A DNA stretch of 64,000 bases from a virus, in UHGV virus genome UHGV-0117634; one strand, 5' to 3'. The notes under the pieces were generated by a model. It was given only the letters and a program-made list of their open reading frames with translations. It did not search any database and was not told the origin of the DNA. The position numbers were made by a program, and so were the translations under genes. This document shows, in pieces, positions 2,631-43,846 of this stretch (position 1 is its first letter; every line of letters begins with the position of its first letter).

Positions 2631-2885
2631 TTAACGTTGCGTAGATTTCTTTGGAGTTTTCACCGAACCAGATGTAAGATTCGTGTTGATTTCAGGATGA
2701 TTGTCAACACGAATCTTACATTCTCTTCCAACATGTTTTAACTGTGCTGTAATACCCTGAATAAACAGGTGACACATTACATCATCCATGATAGTTGGTA
2801 AGAAATCAATTCTCATATAAGTGTTACTTGGTCTTGGAAGAAGTAAGTAACCTTCTACATAAAACGTTTCACTCTTTTCTGTCAT
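2631..2885 (-). CDS. hypothetical protein (84 aa)
   Basis: ORF-track ORF. Confidence 0.4.
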   Translation of the reverse strand: MTEKSETFYVEGYLLLPRPSNTYMRIDFLPTIMDDVMCHLFIQGITAQLKHVGRECKIRVDNHPEINTNLTSGSVKTPKKSTQR

Positions 2886-3151
2886 TGCTGTTTATTCCCT
2901 AACAAAATCATATCAATCAAATTGTTTGCCTTGATAGCACATTCATAGAATCCATCACGATAAAACTCCATAGCACTAGCAAGGTCTTCACCCTTAGTAC
3001 CCTTGACAGTGTACCTAGTCTCTTCCTGAGTGTACTTGTCACTCTCACTTACTTGGGAGTTTTTGAAGGTACTGTTCACTTTGTTGGTTGAACACCCCGA
3101 TATAAGGCTCAGTAGCACAAATATTATAAAACTCTGTCTTAGTTTTTTCAT
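2882..3151 (-). CDS. lipoprotein, candidate o-spanin (overlapped with upstream gene)
   Basis: Signal peptide with lipobox (LSLISG-C); starts inside the 3' end of 3045..3392 in another frame and extends beyond it (Rz/Rz1-like overlapped architecture). Not proline-rich, so uncertain. Confidence 0.4.
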   Translation of the reverse strand: MKKLRQSFIIFVLLSLISGCSTNKVNSTFKNSQVSESDKYTQEETRYTVKGTKGEDLASAMEFYRDGFYECAIKANNLIDMILLGNKQQ

Positions 3152-3392
3152 AGGTCAATACCTCTTTTGTGTGTTTGTTTTTAGCAAGCACATCTTTCAA
3201 ATCATTTTTATAATTAGCACTAAGATTTGCTAAACCTTCTTGGTAAGCATCCTTAGCAACACTAACAAGCTTCTGATTAGTCAACTCTTTCTCGTTAACT
3301 TGGCTAGTCTTGTAAGTGTAACCGCCCCAAGCACCTACACCTAACAGAAAAATGATTACAAAAGCTGCTTGACAAAATTCTTTAAATGTCAT
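3045..3392 (-). CDS. type-II membrane protein, candidate i-spanin
   Basis: N-terminal TMD (FVIIFLLGVGAWGG) followed by charged, coiled-coil-like periplasmic region; embedded lipoprotein ORF in +1 frame. Confidence 0.4.
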   Translation of the reverse strand: MTFKEFCQAAFVIIFLLGVGAWGGYTYKTSQVNEKELTNQKLVSVAKDAYQEGLANLSANYKNDLKDVLAKNKHTKEVLTYEKTKTEFYNICATEPYIGVFNQQSEQYLQKLPSK

Positions 3393-3411
3393 TTAACTTC
3401 TCCTATAAATG

Positions 3412-3433
3412 AAAAAGGCTCCCGAAGGAGCCT
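3412..3433 (-). terminator. rho-independent terminator (minus strand GGCTCC-TTCG-GGAGCC then T-run)
   Basis: Plus strand AAAAAGGCTCCCGAAGGAGCCT; perfect stem, tetraloop, T-run on minus strand; follows 3445..3909. Confidence 0.6.
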
Positions 3434-3444
3434 CTATATTAACC

Positions 3445-3909
3445 TTAACCTAGAACTTTAGCAAGCACATTTGCAGCCATTGTTGAGGCTTTAGCAGCAG
3501 CGTTAACCCCAGATTTAATGGTGCTGTCCTTGATAGCTGATACCGTTGCAGCATCAGTAAACAGATAAGTGGTAGTCTTTTCACCACTTGTGAAGGAAAG
3601 CATAAGAGCAGTTTCCAGATTGAAGGAACGGTATGGTGCTCCCTGTTTTACAATCCCTGCTGCACCAAGTTCTGAAGCCATACCCATATCATAGATGGTC
3701 ATCAGATTTTCTTTGTGAGCAGTTGTAGAACCAACACCTTTAACGTGTTTAGAAACATTCAGCAGAGCACGATACTCACGAATCTCTCCGTCAGCTTTGA
3801 CGTTTACTGCTCGGAAGATTTTACCTTCAAAGTTGTCTTTGATGATACGACGAACAACTTCAGATTTGTTTCCGGTTGCATCGATAGCTACTGTTATAAT
3901 ATTTTGCAT
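3445..3909 (-). CDS. hypothetical protein (154 aa)
   Basis: ORF-track ORF with GAGAGAG-containing leader and its own terminator. Confidence 0.5.
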   Translation of the reverse strand: MQNIITVAIDATGNKSEVVRRIIKDNFEGKIFRAVNVKADGEIREYRALLNVSKHVKGVGSTTAHKENLMTIYDMGMASELGAAGIVKQGAPYRSFNLETALMLSFTSGEKTTTYLFTDAATVSAIKDSTIKSGVNAAAKASTMAANVLAKVLG

Positions 3910-3920
3910 GGTTTTCTCTC

Positions 3921-4616
3921 TCAGTTTTTAACTAACATTGTTTTAATGTGTGGAAGGATTCTTTCGACCTTTGCCACGTTCTTTACTGTATCTTCTATAA
4001 AGCATACTACATCATAGTAAGGTAGAATGCAAGACTGAAGCATACGAACTTTCAAACTTTCTGCACTAATCTCATTGTCACCAAATCCACGCATAAACAG
4101 TAAGAAATCACTGTCTACATTTTCATTCAGGAAGAGATGAGTGACCACTCTCTGTGATTCACCACGAGCAGTTAAGAATCCTATATCAGCATTTTGTGAT
4201 ATCCCACACAGGATGTTAAAAACATAAGTTGGTTTAGCTCTGCGAGAGTCCACCAAGTTAGTGTACTGTGAGTAAGTACCATCATCTAACAGAGTTGCAT
4301 TAAGTTTCTTATCAAAACTTGTAAGAACACCATCAATATCTGCTAAGACCATTTTACGTTTTTCTTCCAAGTTCTTTGCAACCAAGATAAGACTATTACG
4401 ACCCACATATACAGTCTTACCTGTTAGCAAATCTTGACAAGGAATCTGTGTCTTTGTTGAATGAAAGTCTTCAAAGCTACATGCAACACATCTTGCTGTA
4501 TCTGCAAAGTCAGCTTTAGCAACGTCTGACCAGCTTGCATAACTGATATCTAAATCAAGTGGTTTGATATCATAAGCATGACACAGAACCGTATCAAATT
4601 GTTTTGATTCGCTCAT
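3921..4616 (-). CDS. HAD-like phosphatase-domain protein (putative nucleotidase), N-terminal region unknown
   Basis: LADIDGVLT matches HAD motif I (DxDG[TV]); later GFGDNE resembles motif IV. Confidence 0.35.
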   Translation of the reverse strand: MSESKQFDTVLCHAYDIKPLDLDISYASWSDVAKADFADTARCVACSFEDFHSTKTQIPCQDLLTGKTVYVGRNSLILVAKNLEEKRKMVLADIDGVLTSFDKKLNATLLDDGTYSQYTNLVDSRRAKPTYVFNILCGISQNADIGFLTARGESQRVVTHLFLNENVDSDFLLFMRGFGDNEISAESLKVRMLQSCILPYYDVVCFIEDTVKNVAKVERILPHIKTMLVKN

Positions 4617-5242: not shown

Positions 5243-6364
5243 TTATACTTCACGTTTACGCTGAGAAATCAGTTCACCAGCAGTTCCTACAACTACATGA
5301 AGTGCTTCTGAACCATCCCACTCTTTGATGACTTCACGGCGACTATTCACAATCGCTGCAACTTCATAACGTGAAGCTCGCATTTTCATATCGTTGTAGT
5401 CAGTTGGTACTGAAACAACATCACGAGGATGAACACGAACTTTCAGGATAGTGTCGCCAGAGAAGCTAGTTACATAGTCCCAAGCCCCAACATGCAGACC
5501 CTGAGAGCATGTTACATGACGGTTATTATCAACCATCCAACGTGGCATCTCAACAATGTTACCCAAATCGTTTGGAACTTTGCAGGTACGAGAGTCAAAC
5601 AGTTTACCACTACGAGTTGTGACTTTCTTCCAACCGATGATATAACCTTCTTCATCGATTTCAACATCAAGGTGTGACACAAAGCCCCAAAGTTGTTCTA
5701 CAGAGTCTTTTGATGGGTTTTCCATCAGTTTTTCGAAGAATGCAATCAGACGGGTAAAGCCTTCATCACCTTTCTTCATCATGTCCAGAATACGGTCTAC
5801 CAGAGTTGAACGCATTTGAACAGCACCGTAGTACAGGTTATCACCTTTAATGGTCACAGCACCCTGAGTAAAGTTCTCAATGGATTTGCGAATATTCATC
5901 AGTTCAAAGGCTTTCTTGTACTCACCTGATACAACAGCCATAACAATTTCAGTGTAGTTAGGGTGAGTTGATTCAACAATCTCTGACTCTGCACCGAAAG
6001 TCATGATAACCGAGTCACCAGTAATCATGTATTCAATCTGACTATTATTCTGCATTGCTTCGTGCAGAGCATTTACAGGTTCTGCTTTGACTGCTTCTTT
6101 AACAGCTTTTGCAACAGGTTTCTGAGTAGCTACCTTTTTAGTTGCTTTAGCTTTCTTAGCACCCTTTGCAATATCCTTCAGAGTCCTCGCAGGTTTTGCT
6201 TTGGTTTTCCCTGTCAGTAAAGTTGCTTCATGACGCTCTACAGCACGACCTACAGAACGAGTTGAAGTATTGTACTTCAGAGCAATTGCAGTTTTGGTAA
6301 GTTTACCTTCTTTAACCAGTGCGTAGATTTCTGCGTCGATTTGTGCTTTAGTCTTAGTAGTCAT
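5243..6364 (-). CDS. rIIB: rIIB-like protein
   Basis: C-terminal region (RSTLVDRILD..., CSQGLHVGAW, VRVHPRDVVSVPTDYNDMKMR) matches T4 RIIB as I recall it; lies immediately downstream of rIIA as in T4. Confidence 0.85.
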   Translation of the reverse strand: MTTKTKAQIDAEIYALVKEGKLTKTAIALKYNTSTRSVGRAVERHEATLLTGKTKAKPARTLKDIAKGAKKAKATKKVATQKPVAKAVKEAVKAEPVNALHEAMQNNSQIEYMITGDSVIMTFGAESEIVESTHPNYTEIVMAVVSGEYKKAFELMNIRKSIENFTQGAVTIKGDNLYYGAVQMRSTLVDRILDMMKKGDEGFTRLIAFFEKLMENPSKDSVEQLWGFVSHLDVEIDEEGYIIGWKKVTTRSGKLFDSRTCKVPNDLGNIVEMPRWMVDNNRHVTCSQGLHVGAWDYVTSFSGDTILKVRVHPRDVVSVPTDYNDMKMRASRYEVAAIVNSRREVIKEWDGSEALHVVVGTAGELISQRKREV

Positions 6365-6407
6365 TTTAATATCTCTCTTTGTTGTTTAAAGTTACTTAGT
6401 GGTTCGT

Positions 6408-6436
6408 ATTCTAAGGGGCTTTTCAGCCCCTGTCAA
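6408..6436 (-). promoter_or_regulatory. sigma70-like promoter for rIIB (TTGACA-N17-TAGAAT) with a GGGGCTGAAAAGCCCC hairpin in the spacer
   Basis: Minus strand TTGACA, 17-nt spacer made almost entirely of a perfect 6-bp-stem hairpin, then TAGAAT ~40 nt upstream of the rIIB ATG. Confidence 0.45.
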
Positions 6437-6443
6437 ACTATTT

Positions 6444-8816
6444 TTATTCCCAACAGTTGGTATCTTCTGGCAGACCTCTAACATCAAACCCTAAGAATCT
6501 ACCAACTTCAACAGGTGACACTTTATTCCAATCCAGATTAGAAAGCAAGAAGTTTTCTTTACGGCGTTTTTCAAAGTAATCTTTGAACTTGCTTTCAAGA
6601 CGCTTCTTAGCATTGTCCAGAATCTTTCTTGGCTTACAAGAGCTTCTCATATTCCTGCGAATGGTGTCAAGAGTACTGTAGATTTCTTTGTAAGCAATTG
6701 GTGCAGCAGTGTATGCCAAGCGACCAAACATTGCTTCTACAGCGTCTTCGTTCCCTTCTAACAGGATTGTTGAGTCAAAGTCTTTGTTATATACATGACC
6801 CCTTGACTTCTTCTTACCAGCAAAGTTGAAGTTACGAGCAACAACATTACAATCTGTGATATCATGCTTATCAGTCATGTACTGATATGTCAAGTAACGA
6901 TGATACTCAATCCAGTGAGTGTTATCAATAAAATCTTTCATCACCTGTGCATTGACTTCTGTCCAATCTTCAGGAATCTTCTTCCAGTTTGCTTTACGGA
7001 AGACATAAACTGTTTGTCCAGTTAATTCTGTCATCAACGTTGCAGCACGTTCTGGTGAGCATGAGAAGATACCACCAAGAACTTCATCACTCTGTGCTTT
7101 GATATACAGTTGTGGTTCTTCAATCTCATCAAAGTTTTCCTTAACTTCCGTATAACGGATTATGCCGGAGTTTGGGCATATAAATGCTTTGTACAGCTTC
7201 ACCACTCCACGTACAATGGTACGTTTCTCATAGTGGTGCTCTTTAGATGACATTGTATGCACACTTAACAGAGTCTTGTCAAGCATATGCAGAGCTACAA
7301 ATTCATCAAATTGCTGCTGACTGCTGAACAAGAAAGCAATACCATTGTAGCGACGGAAGTTGGAATCTTCCTGTTCACGGTCACGGCAAGCTCCACGGAT
7401 AATCTGATTTTTACCAGTCGTCTTTTCAGACCCGTTCTTGTTTCGACGGTCATTGATAAGGAACAAATAGTTGCTCAACTTATCTTTACTCATTGCACCA
7501 AAGATACTAAACATGGCAGCATCTTGTGAATATGTTGCTGAAGTTGCTCGAATACGATTCTCCAGACTGCTGTACTTGTAATATGCTACAGGTTCATACA
7601 GATTACCAATATTAGGAACTGGATTACCGTCTTTGTCAAGCCTTAAGTTACCTGCATCATCTTTTAAGAATGATGGAGAACCATCTGCTTCAGTTAACTG
7701 ACCACGACGAATACCCAACAGCTTTTGTTCAAGCTTTTTCAAGTTCTGACCTTGCCACTCCAGAGAATCTTGGACGTGATTAAAGATTTCACGAGCCTCT
7801 TTCCTCATGGTATCATAAGCCTGAGCAGCATCAATCAGCGTTGGCTTATTAGCAATCTCTTTAACCACATCTTCAACGATTGTCTTAGTGATTTTCTTCA
7901 CGGCTTCAACAATCTTTGTCTTAGTGGTCTCATTCATCTGTAATGCTTCACGAGATGCAGCAATAGCCACTGAACCAATTGGCATGTAGATATTAACAAG
8001 GTCTACAGCACTACGGAAGAACTGAGGCAGAATACTTGTAAACTCTGAACCAAGCAACTCACCCATTTCAACAGGATAAGCAATATTACCCATGATTACG
8101 TTGAAATGGACACTATTACTATTTGAGCGCCAGTTCTCTTTGTACTTCATTGCATCATAGACACCATCTTCACGAGAAATGGAAGTCATTGCTTCAAGAA
8201 TGTCATAGTACTCAACATTACACTCTGGCTTAACTTTAAAGTACGAGTATACATTGCTCGCTTCTTCATGAAACTTGTTAATACGGTTATCAGATACCGC
8301 TACTCGAACAGCTAAACCATTTGGCTCTGTAGTTGGGTTAGTAGTCAACTTAGTGACTTGAGGGATACCATTCTCAAGATATACAGAGTACTTGTTAACA
8401 ACACCATCAACATAGCTTGATACAGTAAATGATTGAGCAATCGCAAACGGTGACTTTGAACCGATACCCATAGCACCGATGTAGTCATTTGAATCGTTCT
8501 TTGTAGATTCTCCATAGGTCATATAAAGCTTCATGACTTTTTCATGAGTCAGACCTGTACCAAAATCACGAACTTCAAAGAAAGGCTCAAAACGAGTTGG
8601 CAAGTGAACCAAGAAAGGCTTATCAACATTACCAGAATCAATGTGAGCATCTACTGCGTTACAAGATAACTCACGAATAACAGCACGTTCTTTGTATGTG
8701 TAAACACCTGAGCTTAGAAGACTGAACATTTCAGGTGTCATCTTAATCTGAGCCTGAGAGGTTTCCAGTGTACTTGAGCTTTTAATTACCGTTGCGTGGT
8801 CATTTACCATGCGCAT
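6444..8816 (-). CDS. rIIA: rIIA-like protein (GHKL/Bergerat-fold ATPase N-terminus)
   Basis: N-terminal YKERAVIRELSCNAVDAH...RDFGTGL...DYIGAMGIGSKSPF aligns with T4 RIIA ATPase-fold motifs from memory; 790 aa. Confidence 0.9.
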   Translation of the reverse strand: MRMVNDHATVIKSSSTLETSQAQIKMTPEMFSLLSSGVYTYKERAVIRELSCNAVDAHIDSGNVDKPFLVHLPTRFEPFFEVRDFGTGLTHEKVMKLYMTYGESTKNDSNDYIGAMGIGSKSPFAIAQSFTVSSYVDGVVNKYSVYLENGIPQVTKLTTNPTTEPNGLAVRVAVSDNRINKFHEEASNVYSYFKVKPECNVEYYDILEAMTSISREDGVYDAMKYKENWRSNSNSVHFNVIMGNIAYPVEMGELLGSEFTSILPQFFRSAVDLVNIYMPIGSVAIAASREALQMNETTKTKIVEAVKKITKTIVEDVVKEIANKPTLIDAAQAYDTMRKEAREIFNHVQDSLEWQGQNLKKLEQKLLGIRRGQLTEADGSPSFLKDDAGNLRLDKDGNPVPNIGNLYEPVAYYKYSSLENRIRATSATYSQDAAMFSIFGAMSKDKLSNYLFLINDRRNKNGSEKTTGKNQIIRGACRDREQEDSNFRRYNGIAFLFSSQQQFDEFVALHMLDKTLLSVHTMSSKEHHYEKRTIVRGVVKLYKAFICPNSGIIRYTEVKENFDEIEEPQLYIKAQSDEVLGGIFSCSPERAATLMTELTGQTVYVFRKANWKKIPEDWTEVNAQVMKDFIDNTHWIEYHRYLTYQYMTDKHDITDCNVVARNFNFAGKKKSRGHVYNKDFDSTILLEGNEDAVEAMFGRLAYTAAPIAYKEIYSTLDTIRRNMRSSCKPRKILDNAKKRLESKFKDYFEKRRKENFLLSNLDWNKVSPVEVGRFLGFDVRGLPEDTNCWE

Positions 8817-8849
8817 AAGAATATCTCCTTAGTTGTCGATGTGGCAAAC

Positions 8850-8877
8850 TATATAATTTTATAGATGCCACTGTCAA
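8850..8877 (-). promoter_or_regulatory. sigma70-like promoter upstream of rIIA (TTGACA-N16-TATATA)
   Basis: Minus strand TTGACAgtggcatctataaaatTATATA about 30 nt upstream of the rIIA ATG. Confidence 0.4.
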
Positions 8878-8878
8878 G

Positions 8879-9058
8879 TTACTTTTTAAATTTCTTTCCA
8901 GTTCCGTTGCAGTAAGGGCAACAATGTCCCATACCAGCTATACCAGAACCTTCACACTCATCACAAGGTTCTGTCTCTGAGAAGTACTTGCATAGTAGCA
9001 CTGCAATGGCAACAATACAACCTAATGATAGAACAATCTCTAACCAATAACTTTGCAT
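8879..9058 (-). CDS. small membrane-anchored protein with two CxxCxGxG (DnaJ-type zinc-finger) motifs (~59 aa, not in ORF track)
   Basis: Translation MQSYWLEIVLSLGCIVAIAVLLCKYFSETEPCDECEGSGIAGMGHCCPYCNGTGKKFKK: one TMD then CDECEGSG and CPYCNGTG. Confidence 0.4.
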   Translation of the reverse strand: MQSYWLEIVLSLGCIVAIAVLLCKYFSETEPCDECEGSGIAGMGHCCPYCNGTGKKFKK

Positions 9059-34816: not shown

Positions 34817-35070
34817 GCAGCAAAGAAGAAGAAGGTTTAGCAATAATCCGTCACAAAAACCCTCAGATATCATTCGTTTCTGAAGCATGGTGTCGTGGTT
34901 TAGACTATCAATGGTACTTAGATTTGTGTAAAATGAAATCTGTAGAGCCAGTAAAAGAAGGGACTTTCAAGGAACTTTACAAGACCGTCCAAGAAGGTTA
35001 CGAAGAAAACTGTGAAAAAGGAAATCAACTATGTGGAAAACAATCATTGCACTTGGAGTGCTTTTTCTAA
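34813..35070 (+). CDS. hypothetical protein (~85 aa)
   Basis: Start moved to second Met (GGAGA RBS, ATGA overlap with the upstream stop). Confidence 0.4.
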   Translation: MSSKEEEGLAIIRHKNPQISFVSEAWCRGLDYQWYLDLCKMKSVEPVKEGTFKELYKTVQEGYEENCEKGNQLCGKQSLHLECFF

Positions 35071-35276
35071 CTGGCTGTAACCCAAGCTACGATAACAAAG
35101 AAGGGAGCTACACACTACCTCCAGAGATGAGAGATTGCTCAATCTATCGGCTGAATGGTTCCATGATTAATAGGGACTTGGTAGTTGTTCGTTGTCCAAA
35201 TTCACAGACTACAACTACCTCTAAAGTTGGTAGAAGTAGTACCCAAAGTGTAACAGTTATCAACGAAGGATATTAA
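35031..35276 (+). CDS. small lipoprotein (candidate superinfection-exclusion protein)
   Basis: Signal peptide plus lipobox (VLFLTG-C), ~60-aa mature part with two further Cys. Confidence 0.45.
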   Translation: MWKTIIALGVLFLTGCNPSYDNKEGSYTLPPEMRDCSIYRLNGSMINRDLVVVRCPNSQTTTTSKVGRSSTQSVTVINEGY

Positions 35277-36589: not shown

Positions 36590-36739
36590 ATGTTTAGTGC
36601 AATTGTTCTGTTTATATTTGTTGTTTTATCATTGGCTTACTTCACAAGTAAACTCTTAAGTATAACATACAAAGCAGCCTTAGCCTTTACTCTGTTGTCA
36701 TTTGTAGTAAATGCAGTAGTCAGAGAATTTTTAGTATAA
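36590..36739 (+). CDS. small hydrophobic protein (~49 aa, not in ORF track)
   Basis: MFSAIVLFIFVVLSLAYFTSKLLSITYKAALAFTLLSFVVNAVVREFLV; GAGG RBS. Confidence 0.35.
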   Translation: MFSAIVLFIFVVLSLAYFTSKLLSITYKAALAFTLLSFVVNAVVREFLV

Positions 36740-36744
36740 AGTTG

Positions 36745-36772
36745 TTGACATGAAGAATCTGACGGGTATACT
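36745..36772 (+). promoter_or_regulatory. sigma70-like promoter (TTGACA-N16-TATACT)
   Basis: Near-consensus hexamers ~50 nt upstream of 36823 ORF; inverted repeat TCTGACGGG...CCCGTCAGA brackets the -10 and leader. Confidence 0.55.
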
Positions 36773-36822: not shown

Positions 36823-37203
36823 ATGAAAAAGTTACTTGTTGGTGTCATTGCTCTTGGTATGAGTTTTAGTGCAGTGGCTATGAAGATGCCTGAAGCAAAC
36901 TTTAATGGTGTTGCTTTAGAGTCTTGTAAGATTGTACAGAAAATTGCATCAAATGCTGGAGAGTTAACTAAACCGTTATCTGCTCCAACTGTTCAAGAAA
37001 TGACTGATAAGATGGTTGACTACAATTACCATTTTATGGGTGATTACTATGACAGATTAGCAGATGAGATGGTCACCCAGAATGTCGATGTTCTTGACAG
37101 CAAAGGTATCGAAACTGTAGAAGATGTGAAAGATAATTTTATGCGTGAGTCTTTCAAAGGTGTCCAATATTTTATTGAAAATCGTAACTGCATAGGTTTA
37201 TAA
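36823..37203 (+). CDS. secreted/periplasmic protein (signal peptide), function unknown
   Basis: MKKLLVGVIALGMSFSAVA signal peptide; GGAGG RBS. Confidence 0.5.
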   Translation: MKKLLVGVIALGMSFSAVAMKMPEANFNGVALESCKIVQKIASNAGELTKPLSAPTVQEMTDKMVDYNYHFMGDYYDRLADEMVTQNVDVLDSKGIETVEDVKDNFMRESFKGVQYFIENRNCIGL

Positions 37204-40785: not shown

Positions 40786-40812
40786 AAAAGGCTCCCGTAA
40801 AAAGGAGCCTTA
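40786..40812. terminator. bidirectional rho-independent terminator between converging operons
   Basis: AAAAAAGGCTCCCGTAAAAAGGAGCCTT flanked by A-run and T-run; lies between thyA (+) and 40816..41190 (-). Confidence 0.65.
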
Positions 40813-40815
40813 TAG

Positions 40816-41190
40816 TTATTTCTTTTTAGTGCTTTGGGTATTTTGTTCTGTAATTGCCTGCAAAGCTGATACAGATTGTGCTAAGTTGTTAACACTGTCA
40901 GAGAACTTATCAAGGGTCTTAGTCAACTTAGCGTTTTCTCCCTTAACATTCTCTAGCTGAACTTTCTGGTTCTCCATCCCTAATTGTAGGAGCTTCATAT
41001 CAGATTGTAAGTCACGAATAGCTGAATAGTTACCTTTTGAGTAACCATCCAACTGCTGTAACTTATTTGTGATAGACACTTCCTGTTTACCATCAGAGAC
41101 CTGCATTGTAGTGTACATACCAATTACACTGAAAATACCTACAACGATTGCACCAATATTATTCTTAAAAGCATCTTCAAGCCACTTCAT
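40816..41190 (-). CDS. membrane-anchored coiled-coil protein (124 aa)
   Basis: N-terminal TMD (IGAIVVGIFSVIGMY) then heptad-rich region; no embedded lipoprotein ORF seen. Confidence 0.45.
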   Translation of the reverse strand: MKWLEDAFKNNIGAIVVGIFSVIGMYTTMQVSDGKQEVSITNKLQQLDGYSKGNYSAIRDLQSDMKLLQLGMENQKVQLENVKGENAKLTKTLDKFSDSVNNLAQSVSALQAITEQNTQSTKKK

Positions 41191-41384
41191 TATTTCTCAC
41201 CTTTAAAAGCCTTTTCCAAGGTATCTACAAATTCATCATCAATAGGTGTATCTGTTTTACTCGCAAGGTATCTTGCAAGCTTAAAGAACACTTTTTCAAT
41301 CATGTATTCGCTAAGAAGAGAAAGTAGAAGCTTCCAGAAGAATGCCCCAAGATTTTTCAAGAGGATTGCTAGAATGGTTGGCAT
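41190..41384 (-). CDS. small single-TMD protein (64 aa), holin-like
   Basis: Hydrophobic N-terminus, charged C-terminus; located after tail fiber genes with its own promoter. Confidence 0.4.
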   Translation of the reverse strand: MPTILAILLKNLGAFFWKLLLSLLSEYMIEKVFFKLARYLASKTDTPIDDEFVDTLEKAFKGEK

Positions 41385-41433
41385 TTAATCACCTTACTTC
41401 TTGAGCCAAGATGGTGAGAATACCTACTAAGAA

Positions 41434-41462
41434 ATATTAACACCATCTTGACAGTTAGTCAA
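41434..41462 (-). promoter_or_regulatory. sigma70-like promoter (TTGACT-N17-TAATAT) for 41384..40816 genes
   Basis: Minus strand hexamers with 17-nt spacer; overlaps palindrome TTGACagttaGTCAA. Confidence 0.4.
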
Positions 41463-41470
41463 CAAGGTAA

Positions 41471-43846
41471 TTATGCAGTTCTTACCCAAGCCATTAGTTT
41501 AATGTAAGTGTTAAGAACACTGAATGCTGCACCAGAACCAGTTGCCCTAGTGTTACCACTGAATGTGTGGTTGTGTCTACCAATACCTACACCGTGACCA
41601 TGAGCACCTACCCAACTAGTTCTACCTGTCCAAGTTCTGGAAGCATAGAAGTTAACTGGCGCACCATAAGTGAAGTTAGAACCAGTGAAACTATGACCAC
41701 CTTGGCTACCACTCATTGCAAAAGCACCGTCTGCAAGGTAAAATGACTCATTATCACTTCTAAACCATCCAAAGTTACCAGAGATTTCCATATTACCTCT
41801 GTCGTGGTCGTGAGCACCATTAACATCTGTGTACTTAGTACCATAGTCAAACCAAGAAGTTGTTCCAGAGAAGCTGTGAGTGTGTGCAGGGATGTGACCA
41901 ACACTTAATGCAACCGTATCAGCACCACCAAGACCCTTCACATCAGAACCATTTTCAGAACCAATCCTAATAGTTCTGTTTGCACCCTCAGTTAAGTAAG
42001 TCCAAGTAGTGCCTGGGAAAGCTGTATTTGGGTTGACATTAGAAGCAAAGAACGCCACAATACCAACCGGATACACTTTCTTAAGGTCTGTAGCATCAGT
42101 TACAGCGGAAGCAATACGTTGGTCCACTTCAGCCTTGGTGTAAGCACCAAGTTCAGAGGGTGTAGGTTTGTCTTTGTCGGTGTAGATTTTAGCCCAAGCC
42201 TCTTCAAAACCAAACCCATCCCTTGCTGTTCTATAATAGATTCCAGTATTCTTGTAGTTAAATTTAAACTGTGCAGTTGGTGTAGATGCACCAACTCCAA
42301 GGTACATTTGGTAAACTAAGTGAGTAGACCCACCAGTTGAATTTGTAACACTGTACAAACCTGTTTTTGCATCCCAAGCAACACCTGTGCCATCACCTAC
42401 TTCTGTTCCAGTTCCAGATACACCAGACAACATATATCTTGAGTTTGCAGCAGATTGTGTGTAGTATCTTGAGTCAAAGTTTGACCAATCGCTTGGTCTT
42501 ACTTGTCCAACAATATTCATATGTGTATTCACATCTAAATCAGTACCAATATTGATTGCCTTTCCTGTTACATCATTGTTAAGTACCACATTGTTTTGAC
42601 CAGCATCACCAATACCCAACCACCATCTCCTGCTCCCATTAGCATTATGTGCAGACATGTAGATTCCAGAGTCTTGTACTGTTGCCTGTAGTCTAAAAGG
42701 ATTGTCGCTGTCAGTATTGATAGTCTGTGGACTAGTAAAAACGTTTGCAGCATTAGTTCTTGCAAGAACGTTCGTCAAAGAGCTTGGAACATATCTTGTA
42801 TCAAAGTTAGAAAAGTCACTTGGTTTTACCTGACCAGCTACATTGATAGCTTTGTTAAATGAAAACTCTGTAGCAATTTTCAAGTTAACATTTGTCATCT
42901 GGTTTGCTAAAACAATCTCAGACTGCGTACCATCTGGTTGACCTACATACCAAGCACCTGTCCCAGCACTGTTGTAACCACGCATAAATAATGCAGCATT
43001 CTCTGAAGCCGCTCTTAAGTTAAGTGCATTCCTATCTGCAATAACATAAGTCTTCCCGTTGAAGTTGTTAACCCCAACAAAGTTATTACTTGCATTAAGT
43101 CTTGCAAATCTCTGGTCAGCAGCAGTCTGTGTAAAGAATCTTGCATCAAGGTTGTTCCAGTTATTAGGCTGAACCTGACCATTGATTTTAAAGTTCTTGT
43201 CAACACTAACAGAGTTTGTACCAAGAGTCAACGTAGCACCTTTGCTGTTAACTAATGTAACATCAGTCCCAGAAGTCAAGTTACCAACTGTGAATCTCAA
43301 AGCATTATTTGAGTCTCTTGCTTCAATATATGCTCCACCATCTGGTAAGATGCTTTTAAGTGTCAAACCAACACCGTTGATATTAATGATTTGTCTTGCC
43401 AAGAAGGTATTTTCAGTTTCCTTCATAGCGTATCTTGCATCATTTTCAGTATTAGTTCTCATACCTAATTCATTAGGAGATGGTTTATTAAGTGTGTGAT
43501 AAACTGTTGCAGACCTTGTGGCATCATTTACAGTTAATCTTAAAGCACTTGCATTAATTCTAAAGGTCTTGGCAGTGTCACCGAGAATAACCTCAGAAGA
43601 ACCTGTTGGGTCTAATAAGTCTTTTCCACCGTATCTTAATTTGACGATGCCAAGATTCCCTGTCATATCCCCACCAGTTAGTTGTAAGAATCTTTCTAGT
43701 TTGAAAGAGGCAAGGAAATTTGCATAGGTCATTTTACGGTCTTCATCACCTAGCATATCAGACCTTTTGATAATTCTTAGGTGAAGTAAATCTTCTGAGC
43801 GAACTGTATCAATACTGTTTAGCTCACTTAGCTTATATTCAGCCAT
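41471..43846 (-). CDS. tail fiber protein (long) with C-terminal HxH-motif domain
   Basis: 791 aa; C-terminal HTHSF..FDYGTK..GAHDHD..GAHGHGVGIGRHNHTF; N-terminus similar to the adjacent fiber. Confidence 0.65.
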   Translation of the reverse strand: MAEYKLSELNSIDTVRSEDLLHLRIIKRSDMLGDEDRKMTYANFLASFKLERFLQLTGGDMTGNLGIVKLRYGGKDLLDPTGSSEVILGDTAKTFRINASALRLTVNDATRSATVYHTLNKPSPNELGMRTNTENDARYAMKETENTFLARQIININGVGLTLKSILPDGGAYIEARDSNNALRFTVGNLTSGTDVTLVNSKGATLTLGTNSVSVDKNFKINGQVQPNNWNNLDARFFTQTAADQRFARLNASNNFVGVNNFNGKTYVIADRNALNLRAASENAALFMRGYNSAGTGAWYVGQPDGTQSEIVLANQMTNVNLKIATEFSFNKAINVAGQVKPSDFSNFDTRYVPSSLTNVLARTNAANVFTSPQTINTDSDNPFRLQATVQDSGIYMSAHNANGSRRWWLGIGDAGQNNVVLNNDVTGKAINIGTDLDVNTHMNIVGQVRPSDWSNFDSRYYTQSAANSRYMLSGVSGTGTEVGDGTGVAWDAKTGLYSVTNSTGGSTHLVYQMYLGVGASTPTAQFKFNYKNTGIYYRTARDGFGFEEAWAKIYTDKDKPTPSELGAYTKAEVDQRIASAVTDATDLKKVYPVGIVAFFASNVNPNTAFPGTTWTYLTEGANRTIRIGSENGSDVKGLGGADTVALSVGHIPAHTHSFSGTTSWFDYGTKYTDVNGAHDHDRGNMEISGNFGWFRSDNESFYLADGAFAMSGSQGGHSFTGSNFTYGAPVNFYASRTWTGRTSWVGAHGHGVGIGRHNHTFSGNTRATGSGAAFSVLNTYIKLMAWVRTA

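Follow-up and report, generated by a model that had tools for sequence, protein, structure and literature searches.

A probable two-gene lysis module, comprising a PM2 P18 homologue and a candidate holin, behind the tail fibre genes of a Felix O1-like phage

Introduction

Typing, biocontrol and therapy in Salmonella and E. coli make wide use of Felix O1-like phages, for which a holin has been named only putatively. In the 64-kb stretch of viral DNA analysed here (the window), two small genes, encoding proteins of 64 and 124 amino acids (aa), stand at the end of the late gene cluster, which raises the question of what such a pair does behind a tail fibre gene. The first-pass annotation took the two products for membrane proteins and proposed that they form the holin/antiholin pair missing from the other lysis cluster or, alternatively, an exclusion system. 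Existing annotations of the 124-aa protein disagree as well. Its homologues in sister phages carry the GenBank label "putative holin", as is the case in Moogle; the laboratory that assigned the Moogle label identified no holin in Meda, although Meda_052 is 92% identical, and the BASEL annotators left both bas63_0028 and bas63_0029 of Bas63 as hypothetical proteins. Experiments on either gene from any Ounavirinae phage were not found in the literature searched. From the evidence presented below, the pair probably forms a lysis module of two genes with which the late transcription unit of the tail fibres closes at its 3' end.

Identity of the phage and layout of the locus

The window is 96–99% identical to Mooglevirus phages and ~98% identical to the Shigella phages SFPB, Sf14, and Sf17; judged by this identity, the source phage is a Mooglevirus, that is, a Felix O1-like myophage. 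The two small ORFs were correctly placed after the tail fibres by the first-pass annotation: they are located immediately 3' of the gene for the 791-aa fibre, on the same strand, and converge on DHFR/ThyA (Table 1). Comparison with the Moogle- and Felixounavirus homologues revealed strong purifying selection on both genes (pN/pS 0.06–0.09; 0.06–0.08 for the 124-aa gene), and in Sf14 the product of the second gene's homologue has been detected by mass spectrometry, so that both ORFs can be regarded as genuine genes. The genes overlap in the sequence TAATG, which suggests translational coupling, and a Shine-Dalgarno sequence, AAAGGTGAG, is located within the 64-aa gene. Throughout the Ounavirinae the two genes are neighbours and follow each other in this arrangement, even in Erwinia and Hafnia phages, whose versions of the 124-aa protein share only 26–29% identity. 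The other lysis cluster of the window contains a spanin pair, in which the o-spanin has the lipobox LISGC, and this pair adjoins the polynucleotide kinase and rIIB/rIIA genes.

Table 1. Coordinates of the gene pair and of neighbouring or related features in the window.
Feature	Position	Strand	Remarks
Bidirectional intrinsic terminator	40788..40811		Common to the convergent thyA gene
124-aa protein gene	40816..41190	-	ORF; PHROG 4038; candidate holin
64-aa protein gene	41190..41384	-	ORF; PF26925, PHROG 402; PM2 P18/gp l homologue
Intergenic RNA hairpin (predicted)	41386..41473	-	Extends between the stop codon of the tail fibre gene and the 64-aa gene's Shine-Dalgarno sequence
Sigma70-like promoter candidate	41434..41462	-	TTGACT-17-TAATAT with TGn extension; predicted start ~41427
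Palindrome TTGACagttaGTCAA	41448..41462		Present, unconserved
791-aa long tail fibre gene	41471..43846	-	Context; last structural gene of the late cluster
Other lysis cluster (spanin genes)	2882..3392	-	i-spanin 3045..3392 overlapping o-spanin 2882..3151

Homology of the 64-aa protein to P18, a lysis factor of PM2

According to precomputed assignments, the Pfam family PF26925 (Phage_PM2_Gpl) is present on every homologue of the 64-aa protein that was found (81 of 81 homologue clusters). A profile built from 11 diverse members of the family matched PM2 gp l in hhalign with a probability of 92% (E 6.4e-7), with 38% identity over residues 19–60, and an alignment of 39 sequences revealed the conserved core E...FF..A......T.T..DD. 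This match identifies the 64-aa protein as homologous to P18 (gp l), which serves PM2 as a lysis factor. The AF2 model of the protein consists of three helices (pLDDT 79), and Foldseek searches with this model against BFVD returned matches to the same family only.

The description of the 64-aa product as a single-TMD protein holds in part. Its N-terminus is indeed hydrophobic, with a best 19-residue Kyte-Doolittle window of 1.66, but two lysines (K10 and K18) lie inside this window, the family median is 1.54, and the AF2 model has three helices. The corresponding value for PM2 gp l is 1.1, and the 13 additional N-terminal residues of the phage protein make its N-terminal helix borderline transmembrane. 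PM2 gp l is reportedly described as having no TMD in the abstract of the 2007 study on PM2 lysis. It is thus doubtful whether the 64-aa protein is a TMD protein, and it appears amphipathic or borderline.

In PM2, as summarized in later articles, the cytoplasmic membrane is punctured by P17, and P18 aids the disintegration of the outer membrane (PMC6356626, PMC9502842), the last lysis step, for which it is needed. The underlying study is that of Krupovic, Daugelavicius & Bamford (2007, Mol Microbiol 64:1635), as referred to in PMC6356626, PMC1950889, and PMC9502842. P18 homologues in Felix O1 and RB49 had already been noted in 2007, according to PMC1950889. By analogy, we infer a P18-type activity at the outer membrane for the 64-aa protein in the Felix O1-like phage. 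As its characterized homologue acts at the outer-membrane step, the antiholin reading of the 64-aa protein is unsupported. For the pair as a whole, a lysis role is supported by the P18 homology of the first protein, by the endolysin or holin T genes that adjoin its family in other phages, and by the "putative holin" label of the second protein, but the division of labour into holin and antiholin is not. A P18-type outer-membrane factor looks redundant, however, in a phage that encodes a genuine spanin pair.

The 124-aa protein is a candidate holin

The architecture proposed for the 124-aa protein, a TMD plus a coiled coil, agrees with our predictions. Its best 19-residue Kyte-Doolittle window (residues 11–29) reaches 1.62, which corresponds to a borderline TMD of weak hydrophobicity rich in Gly, Ala, Ser, and Thr. 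The AF2 model comprises a helix at residues 2–28, a linker, and one single helix of 84 residues (40–123), and the protein ends in ...QSTKKK. In its small size, its TMD, and its charged, hydrophilic C-terminus, the protein resembles holins, which have at least one TMD; the charges flanking the TMD give no decision between an N-in and an N-out orientation. The family is confined to the Ounavirinae, and its conserved positions include N11 and S21 in the TMD and the distal motif DKxxDSVNNL.

Database searches placed the protein in none of the known holin, spanin, or releasin families. Searches of Pfam, PHROGs, and NCBIfam yielded only sub-threshold coiled-coil matches, the AF2 model had zero Foldseek matches in the PDB, and a full-library search with the family profile retrieved 8 proteins only, all of which belonged to the same small family or were fragments. 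Homology to the T-type holins (PF11031; hhalign 0.5%), to PM2 P17 (0.3%), and to Mu gp25/DUF2730 (PF10805; 0.2%) was rejected. The DUF2730 profile was matched by one distant relative only, at 18.3 bits with a cutoff of 24.9, and for all six family members scanned it was not among the 25 Pfam families listed out of 118. Paralogy with the i-spanin that the phage itself encodes was rejected as well (BLASTP E 1.3), and the match of the protein to a PHROG spanin reached only E 0.099. The role of an i-spanin subunit was likewise rejected: no ORF with a lipobox was found within or beside positions 40816–41462, and the genuine spanin pair is encoded elsewhere.

The assignment as a holin is based on position and architecture. 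The late cluster ends with this gene, which overlaps the one for the P18 homologue, whereas the endolysin and the spanins are encoded far away. Its position is the one that T occupies behind the P18 homologue in RB49. PM2 likewise pairs a single-TMD holin with P18. Because the gene lies beside a P18 homologue and at the T4 t spot, a holin remains the best guess for the 124-aa protein, which is the best available candidate for this function in the phage.

Among the rival explanations, the one that survives best still appears unlikely: the pair could be lysis-related without the 124-aa protein being the holin. The latter might then be an accessory or regulatory protein, namely an antiholin of the RI type whose signal-anchor can be released, a membrane-tethered factor resembling releasins, or a partner of the P18-like protein that reaches the periplasm. 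In that case a different small membrane protein, encoded elsewhere, would act as the holin. The weak TMD, whose Gly/Ala/Ser/Thr-rich composition resembles that of SAR domains, would be in line with this explanation, as would the distal tip of the long helix, which is the most conserved part, as expected of a binding site. Moreover, a protein in the Mu lysis cassette combines a TMD with a helical domain and yet is not a holin (PMC9239132), two expert annotation efforts (Meda and BASEL) withheld the holin label, and other small membrane ORFs do exist in the window as well as outside it, where bas63_0116, for example, lies near the endolysin. However, the membrane ORFs in the window belong to early-region clusters behind strong sigma70-like promoters, an RI-like protein would have no T-type holin as its target in this phage, and the 124-aa protein has no sequence relation to Mu gp25.

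Genomic neighbourhoods of the P18 family and a possible role in morphogenesis

In other phages, genes of the 64-aa family are found directly 3' of Phage_lysozyme, Amidase_3, or DUF5675 genes. Neighbouring lysis genes occur in Vibrio and Shewanella siphophages, in Krischvirus, and in PM2, and in RB49-like phages the gene is located between the gp37 fibre gene and Phage_holin_T. Metagenomic phages combine the family with Amidase_3 or with DUF5675. The locus scan in IMG/VR yielded 13 loci only. DUF5675 is presumably an endolysin family, although its database description reads "family of unknown function". Within 6 kb of the cassettes of endolysin and Gpl genes no lipoprotein (spanin) ORF was found by a scan that does detect the o-spanin of the Felix O1-like phage itself.

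A different placement was observed in Grimontviridae and Lahexavirus, where capsid genes on one side and adaptor/tail genes on the other flank the family member and no lysis gene adjoins it; this counts against the lysis reading. The same placement would fit a role of one or both proteins in virion or tail-fibre morphogenesis, either as a membrane-anchored assembly factor or as a minor virion component, and so would the invariable position of the pair after tail-fibre genes in Ounavirinae and Krischvirus and the existence of small coiled-coil fibre chaperones such as gp57A in T4. In addition, it was in a particle preparation that mass spectrometry detected the 124-aa protein's homologue of Sf14, which could mean that it is associated with the virion. 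We nevertheless regard such a role as improbable. The Sf14 sample was a low-speed pellet (13,000 g, no gradient step) that would carry membrane vesicles, and no density is assigned to the homologue in Table 1 and the searched text of the report on the Sf14 structures. The characterized member of the 64-aa family, P18, is a lysis factor of a tailless virus according to the summaries of PM2 lysis, other members follow endolysin genes in replication or early-type modules and not structural ones, and the T4 and T7 holin genes also follow fibre genes.

Promoter, hairpin, and terminator

The first-pass annotation assigned the pair a sigma70-like promoter of its own, overlapping the palindrome TTGACagttaGTCAA. 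Both hexamers of the promoter are present and invariant across four sequence variants from close relatives, the spacer being variable, but the match to the consensus is 9/12 and a local scan did not rise above chance (11 sites versus 10.0 ± 3.5 in shuffled sequences). The candidate is 1 of only 6 strong sites in the window that are wholly intergenic, all of which (6/6) point at a gene. It is absent in the Erwinia and Hafnia relatives phiEa104 and Zyzzx, where a classic terminator is found instead. We consider the promoter plausible. The palindrome is broken in Mijalis/Moogle, Bas63/ASO1A, and Meda and looks like a chance occurrence.

Better conserved than this palindrome is a predicted RNA hairpin in the intergenic region. 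Its inner 10-bp inverted repeat is CAAGATGGTG/CACCATCTTG, and in its outer stem UUACCUU pairs with the Shine-Dalgarno sequence AAGGUGA (41395..41389) of the 64-aa gene. The calculated stability is −30.5 kcal/mol (z −5.5), which was equalled by 0 of 200 shuffled sequences, and the fold recurs in Moogle- and Felixounavirus-type sequences with dG values of −30 to −34. In the alignment, which contains four variants only, 96% of the cells are paired and one compensatory pair is found. Relative to Meda, the intergenic region has 12 substitutions in 85 aligned columns, compared with differences at 26.7 of 40.3 synonymous sites in the adjacent gene. The annotators of ASO1A placed a terminator at the site of this hairpin. 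Downstream, the pair ends at a bidirectional terminator, just as the first-pass annotation had stated; this terminator is annotated in Michonne, Mijalis, Meda, and ASO1A, and its stem-loop sequence is identical in Erwinia phage phiEa104.

As for an exclusion system, the second option of the first-pass annotation, it is very improbable that the pair serves superinfection exclusion or immunity from a constitutive promoter of its own. A sigma70-like promoter that does not depend on the late machinery, the adjoining receptor-binding genes, as with llp in T5, and the membrane association of both products would suit such a role. However, the promoter is missing in the Erwinia and Hafnia relatives although these retain the gene pair, the proteins have no lipobox or signal peptide, comparison with PHROGs, Pfam, and NCBIfam revealed no resemblance to known exclusion proteins, and the 64-aa family occurs, always in late or lysis contexts, in phages with unrelated hosts and receptors and, as a lysis gene, in PM2.

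Proposed function of the gene pair

In the two-gene lysis module that we consider probable, the first gene would encode a small, helical, membrane-active protein with the P18-like activity expected from its homology. The product of the second would be a bitopic protein of the inner membrane, its single TMD being joined to a coiled-coil stalk with a predicted length of ~12 nm; as a candidate holin, it would give the soluble endolysin, whose gene lies in another part of the genome, access to the cell wall. By masking the ribosome-binding site of the first gene, the conserved hairpin may insulate the pair from the strong transcript of the structural genes, and the sigma70-like promoter embedded in the hairpin might permit independent expression in this lineage; the bidirectional terminator closes the unit. 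A bolder version of this proposal is rather unlikely. It holds that the 124-aa protein founds a novel kind of lysis protein specific to the Ounavirinae, in a fixed unit with a membrane-active peptide of the P18 type. The protein would represent either a new class of holins, marked by a single TMD and a coiled-coil stalk of ~12 nm, or a regulator that is not a holin. The hairpin would silence late transcripts reading through from upstream, and only transcripts starting at the buried promoter would be translated.

With respect to the gene pair, our finding is largely a rediscovery and adds little, because the P18 link was published in 2007 and is contained in Pfam, and the label "putative holin" exists. 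What goes beyond the known is the conserved arrangement of hairpin and promoter. The P18 link of the 64-aa gene is, however, missing from the GenBank annotations of Felix O1-like phages, and it provides a checkable hypothesis, namely that an outer-membrane or membrane-active lysis accessory coexists with spanins.

Comparison with known lysis systems

The 124-aa protein is similar in size to the phage's own i-spanin (115 aa), but, unlike i-spanins of the lambda Rz type, its gene has no embedded, overlapping, or adjacent gene for a cognate lipoprotein. With the releasin gp25 of Mu, which is encoded among lysis genes, it shares an N-terminal TMD and a subsequent helical domain of ~75–95 residues. 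A difference lies in the endolysin: that of Felix O1-type phages is annotated as a soluble lysozyme (PMC4319497), and therefore no SAR endolysin would have to be released.

The resemblance to T4-type phages concerns both the protein and its surroundings. In the class III holin T, too, a single TMD is combined with a large C-terminal domain, and its gene is the last of the tail-fibre unit, behind a P18-family gene in RB49. Furthermore, the Felix O1-like phage possesses rIIA/rIIB and a spanin pair beside the polynucleotide kinase, an arrangement of these genes known from T4. T differs, however, by its globular periplasmic domain and its cytoplasmic N-terminus of ~30 residues, compared with the long single helix and the 10-residue N-terminus of the 124-aa protein.

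PM2 offers counterparts to both proteins. P17 (gp k) has no sequence similarity to the 124-aa protein and is much smaller (53 aa), and the helical domain in the phage protein is much longer, but the two agree in their short N-terminus, one TMD, an amphipathic or coiled-coil tail, and a neighbour of the P18 family. The order of the genes is reversed in the Felix O1-like phage, where the P18-like gene comes first and the membrane-protein gene second. Unlike PM2, for which neither is annotated, this phage possesses a spanin pair together with a soluble endolysin; an exception in the PM2 annotation is the RefSeq record, in which the structural protein P5 is labelled "endolysin". Apart from the longer N-terminus of the phage protein, the 64-aa protein and P18 are alike in being small and all-helical and in sharing the core E26, F33–F34, A37, T44-x-T46-x-x-D49-D50, and in both viruses the gene adjoins one for a single-TMD membrane protein right where the late operon ends.

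Phage Identity and Layout of the Locus

In a nucleotide search, a 901-base query spanning the locus matched 298 phage records, with 96–99% identity to the Shigella phages SFPB, Sf17, Sf14, and Sf13 and about 91% to the Citrobacter phages Michonne and Moogle. The nearest relatives all belong to Mooglevirus of the subfamily Ounavirinae, i.e., they are Felix O1-like myophages. The terminator at the end of the locus has the same sequence in Erwinia phage phiEa104 (4552–4573 of the locus compared), and the small proteins flanking it are only ~27–50% identical between the two phages. In the GenBank record of SFPB, the closest relative, thymidylate synthase is split into two CDS and the 64-aa gene is unannotated, probably owing to sequencing or annotation artefacts.

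Features of the small-gene locus and of other membrane- or lysis-related regions in the window
Feature	Position	Strand	Remarks
Long tail fibre, 791 aa	43846..41471	−	First in minus-strand order
Spacer, 86 nt		−	Between tail fibre and 64-aa ORF
Conserved hairpin	41386–41473	−	Entire fibre/64-aa-gene spacer; dG −30.5 kcal/mol, z −5.5
Sigma70-like hexamers	41462..41434	−	TTGACT-17-TAATAT, TG 5′ of −10
64-aa ORF	41384..41190	−	
124-aa ORF	41190..40816	−	
Bidirectional terminator stem-loop	40788–40811		AGGCTCCTTTTTACGGGAGCCT; 3′ of 124-aa ORF
thyA and DHFR genes			Convergent, beyond terminator
i/o-spanin pair, genuine	2882–3392		Adjoins polynucleotide kinase and rIIB/rIIA
Spanin pair, polynucleotide kinase, rIIB/rIIA	2882–4616 and 5243–8816	−	
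Sigma70-like site for rIIA	8848–8877		TTGACA-18-TATAGT; strong
ORF 5′ of this site	8879–9058	−	
81-aa ORF	35031–35276	+	Early cluster
49-aa ORF	36590–36739	+	Early region
Sigma70-like site	36745–36772		TTGACA-16-TATACT; 3′ of 49-aa ORF
126-aa ORF	36823–37203	+	Follows this site

The first-pass annotation of this locus was largely right, and both small ORFs that it had proposed are real genes. Their pN/pS ratios are 0.06–0.09 against the Felixounavirus and Moogle homologues (nucleotide identity 81–94%), and the stop codon of the 64-aa ORF overlaps the start of the 124-aa ORF (TAATG). With AAAGGTGAG located just 5′ of the overlap, this is a classic arrangement for translational coupling. Moreover, mass spectrometry of a particle preparation of Sf14 detected FDI99_gp102, the homologue of the 124-aa protein in that phage (PMC11821841); since this sample was only a 13,000 g pellet, the detection indicates expression, not virion membership.

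The 64-aa Protein Belongs to the P18 (gp l) Family

The 64-aa protein falls into phrog_402, annotated in PHROGs as of unknown function, and had no match in the local copies of Pfam and NCBIfam. All its homologues in a large protein collection, however, carry a precomputed match to PF26925 (Phage_PM2_Gpl). When 11 diverse family members were combined into a profile, hhalign aligned it to gp l of corticovirus PM2 (51 aa, translated from the PM2 genome) with a probability of 92% and an E-value of 6.4e-7, at 38% identity over residues 19–60 of the 64-aa protein. This relationship was already published in 2007, but homologues in GenBank are labelled “hypothetical protein” or “putative cytoplasmic membrane protein” without the P18 link. 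In PM2, the cytoplasmic membrane is punctured by P17 (gp k), host factors probably degrade the wall, and P18 (gp l) assists in disintegrating the outer membrane (PMC6356626); P17 has been assigned to a distinct holin class, and outer-membrane disruption requires P18 (PMC9502842).

The protein had been described as having a single transmembrane domain (TMD). Its highest Kyte–Doolittle value is 1.66, with K10 and K18 inside the segment, and the median over 81 family clusters is 1.54, below the usual TMD threshold of 1.6 for a 19-residue window; PM2 gp l reaches 1.1. The AF2 model (39-sequence alignment, pLDDT 79) consists of three helices (2–23, 26–43, and 47–63). “Membrane-active amphipathic helix” is a safer description than “TMD”.

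The genomic neighbors of the family differ between phage groups. Vibrio siphophages and a Shewanella prophage carry the P18-family gene immediately 3′ of a Phage_lysozyme gene, and in metagenomic phages it overlaps the 3′ end of an Amidase_3 gene or of a gene for DUF5675, a family whose entry assigns no function. T4-like phages of Krischvirus, RB49 among them, encode it between a gp37-type fibre and Phage_holin_T. In all Ounavirinae its neighbors are the fibre and the 124-aa gene; in Grimontviridae and Lahexavirus podophages they are capsid genes on one side and adaptor/tail genes on the other, and no lysis gene adjoins it. In siphophage-like endolysin-Gpl cassettes it directly follows the endolysin, at the usual spanin site. 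A lipobox scan of ~6 kb around five such cassettes, which in a control recovered the window phage's own o-spanin but covered short flanks, found no lipoprotein ORF; this fits a P18-type protein taking the spanin slot. One of these loci (L035) has a 31-aa TMD ORF two genes 5′ of the lysozyme gene.

A Putative Holin

The 124-aa protein (phrog_4038, annotated as of unknown function) has a Gly/Ser/Thr-rich hydrophobic segment, NIGAIVVGIFSVIGMYTTM, with a Kyte–Doolittle value of 1.62. AF2 (shallow alignment, pLDDT 67) predicts a helix at 2–28, a linker, and an unbroken helix at 40–123 of ~12 nm. Within the phage collection its family is confined to Ounavirinae, and 1.8 billion representative proteins yielded eight matches. 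Members from Erwinia and Hafnia phages have diverged (26–29% identity); these and two metagenomic relatives retain N11 and S21 of the TMD motif and a distal DKxxDSVNNL. No relation was found to T holins, PM2 P17, Mu gp25/DUF2730, or the phage's own i-spanin, nothing related is present in the PDB, and no lipoprotein partner was found.

Existing annotations conflict. The GenBank label “putative holin” traces to the Moogle announcement, where it is annotation only (PMC4319497). For Meda, the same centre later reported that “a holin was not identified” (PMC6486253), yet Meda_052 shares 92% identity with the 124-aa protein, and the BASEL annotation of the Bas63 homologues is hypothetical. The case for a holin is therefore positional and architectural: this is a membrane protein whose gene overlaps that of the P18 homologue, in RB49 the T holin holds the same place, and PM2 likewise couples a one-TMD holin (P17) with P18. 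In T4 (g37-g38-t) and T7 (17-17.5), too, the holin gene is located 3′ of a fibre gene. Furthermore, the endolysin of Felix O1-like phages has been described as a soluble lysozyme (PMC4319497), an enzyme that requires a hole-forming holin. On these grounds of position and architecture, we regard the 124-aa protein as a putative holin.

The initial interpretation was partly right: a lysis module is the best-supported reading of the pair. Of the holin/antiholin pair suggested initially, the antiholin is replaced by what is, judged from its sequence, a P18-type lysis accessory, and the alternative of an exclusion system found no support. The pair had already been connected to lysis, through the label given to it in sister genomes and through the P18 relationship, which was published in 2007 and is recorded in Pfam.

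Candidate Promoter and Conserved Spacer Hairpin

The sigma70-like promoter attributed to the pair is a plausible candidate, but not subfamily-wide. Both hexamers are present, and among four sequence variants from phages of the Moogle and Felixounavirus types neither varies, whereas the spacer between them does; the palindrome said to overlap them is broken in three of the four. Locally, promoter-like sites are not above chance (11 versus 10.0 ± 3.5 expected). In the window as a whole, just six strong sites are wholly intergenic (2.5 kb of intergenic DNA), all pointing at a gene ≤150 nt away; this site is the weakest of them, and no other lies in the late cluster. At the spacer position, Erwinia phage phiEa104 and Hafnia phage Zyzzx lack a promoter-like site and carry a textbook terminator (stem and T-run).

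The hexamers lie inside the spacer hairpin, whose dG lies between −30 and −34 kcal/mol in every variant compared. In its outer stem, sequence just 3′ of the fibre stop codon pairs with the Shine–Dalgarno sequence AAGGUGA of the 64-aa gene. In the alignment, comprising four distinct sequences only, 96% of cells are paired and one pair is changed on both sides (U-A to C-G). Relative to Meda, the spacer has 12 substitutions in 85 aligned columns, whereas synonymous sites of the adjacent gene differ at 26.7 of 40.3; this low divergence indicates that the spacer is constrained. In all Ounavirinae the gene pair would be shielded from the heavy structural-gene transcript, and in the Felix O1/Moogle lineage the promoter within the hairpin may yield transcripts lacking the 5′ arm. 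In such transcripts, part of the Shine–Dalgarno sequence is still predicted to pair with UCACC.

Other Membrane Proteins and Module Organisation

Elsewhere in the window, the 81-aa ORF has a textbook lipoprotein signal, MWKTIIALGVLFLTGC, and may encode a phage lipoprotein. The ORF separated from rIIA by a strong sigma70-like site has a Bas63 homologue annotated as “putative membrane protein”. The 49-aa ORF with two hydrophobic segments and the 126-aa ORF with a signal peptide represent further small envelope proteins of the early region and alternative membrane-protein candidates.

The arrangement of the spanin pair with polynucleotide kinase and rIIB/rIIA resembles pseT/pseT.2/pseT.3 and rII in T4. 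Together with the order of fibre followed by lysis gene, this analogy suggests that the window phage and T4-like phages have their module organisation in common.
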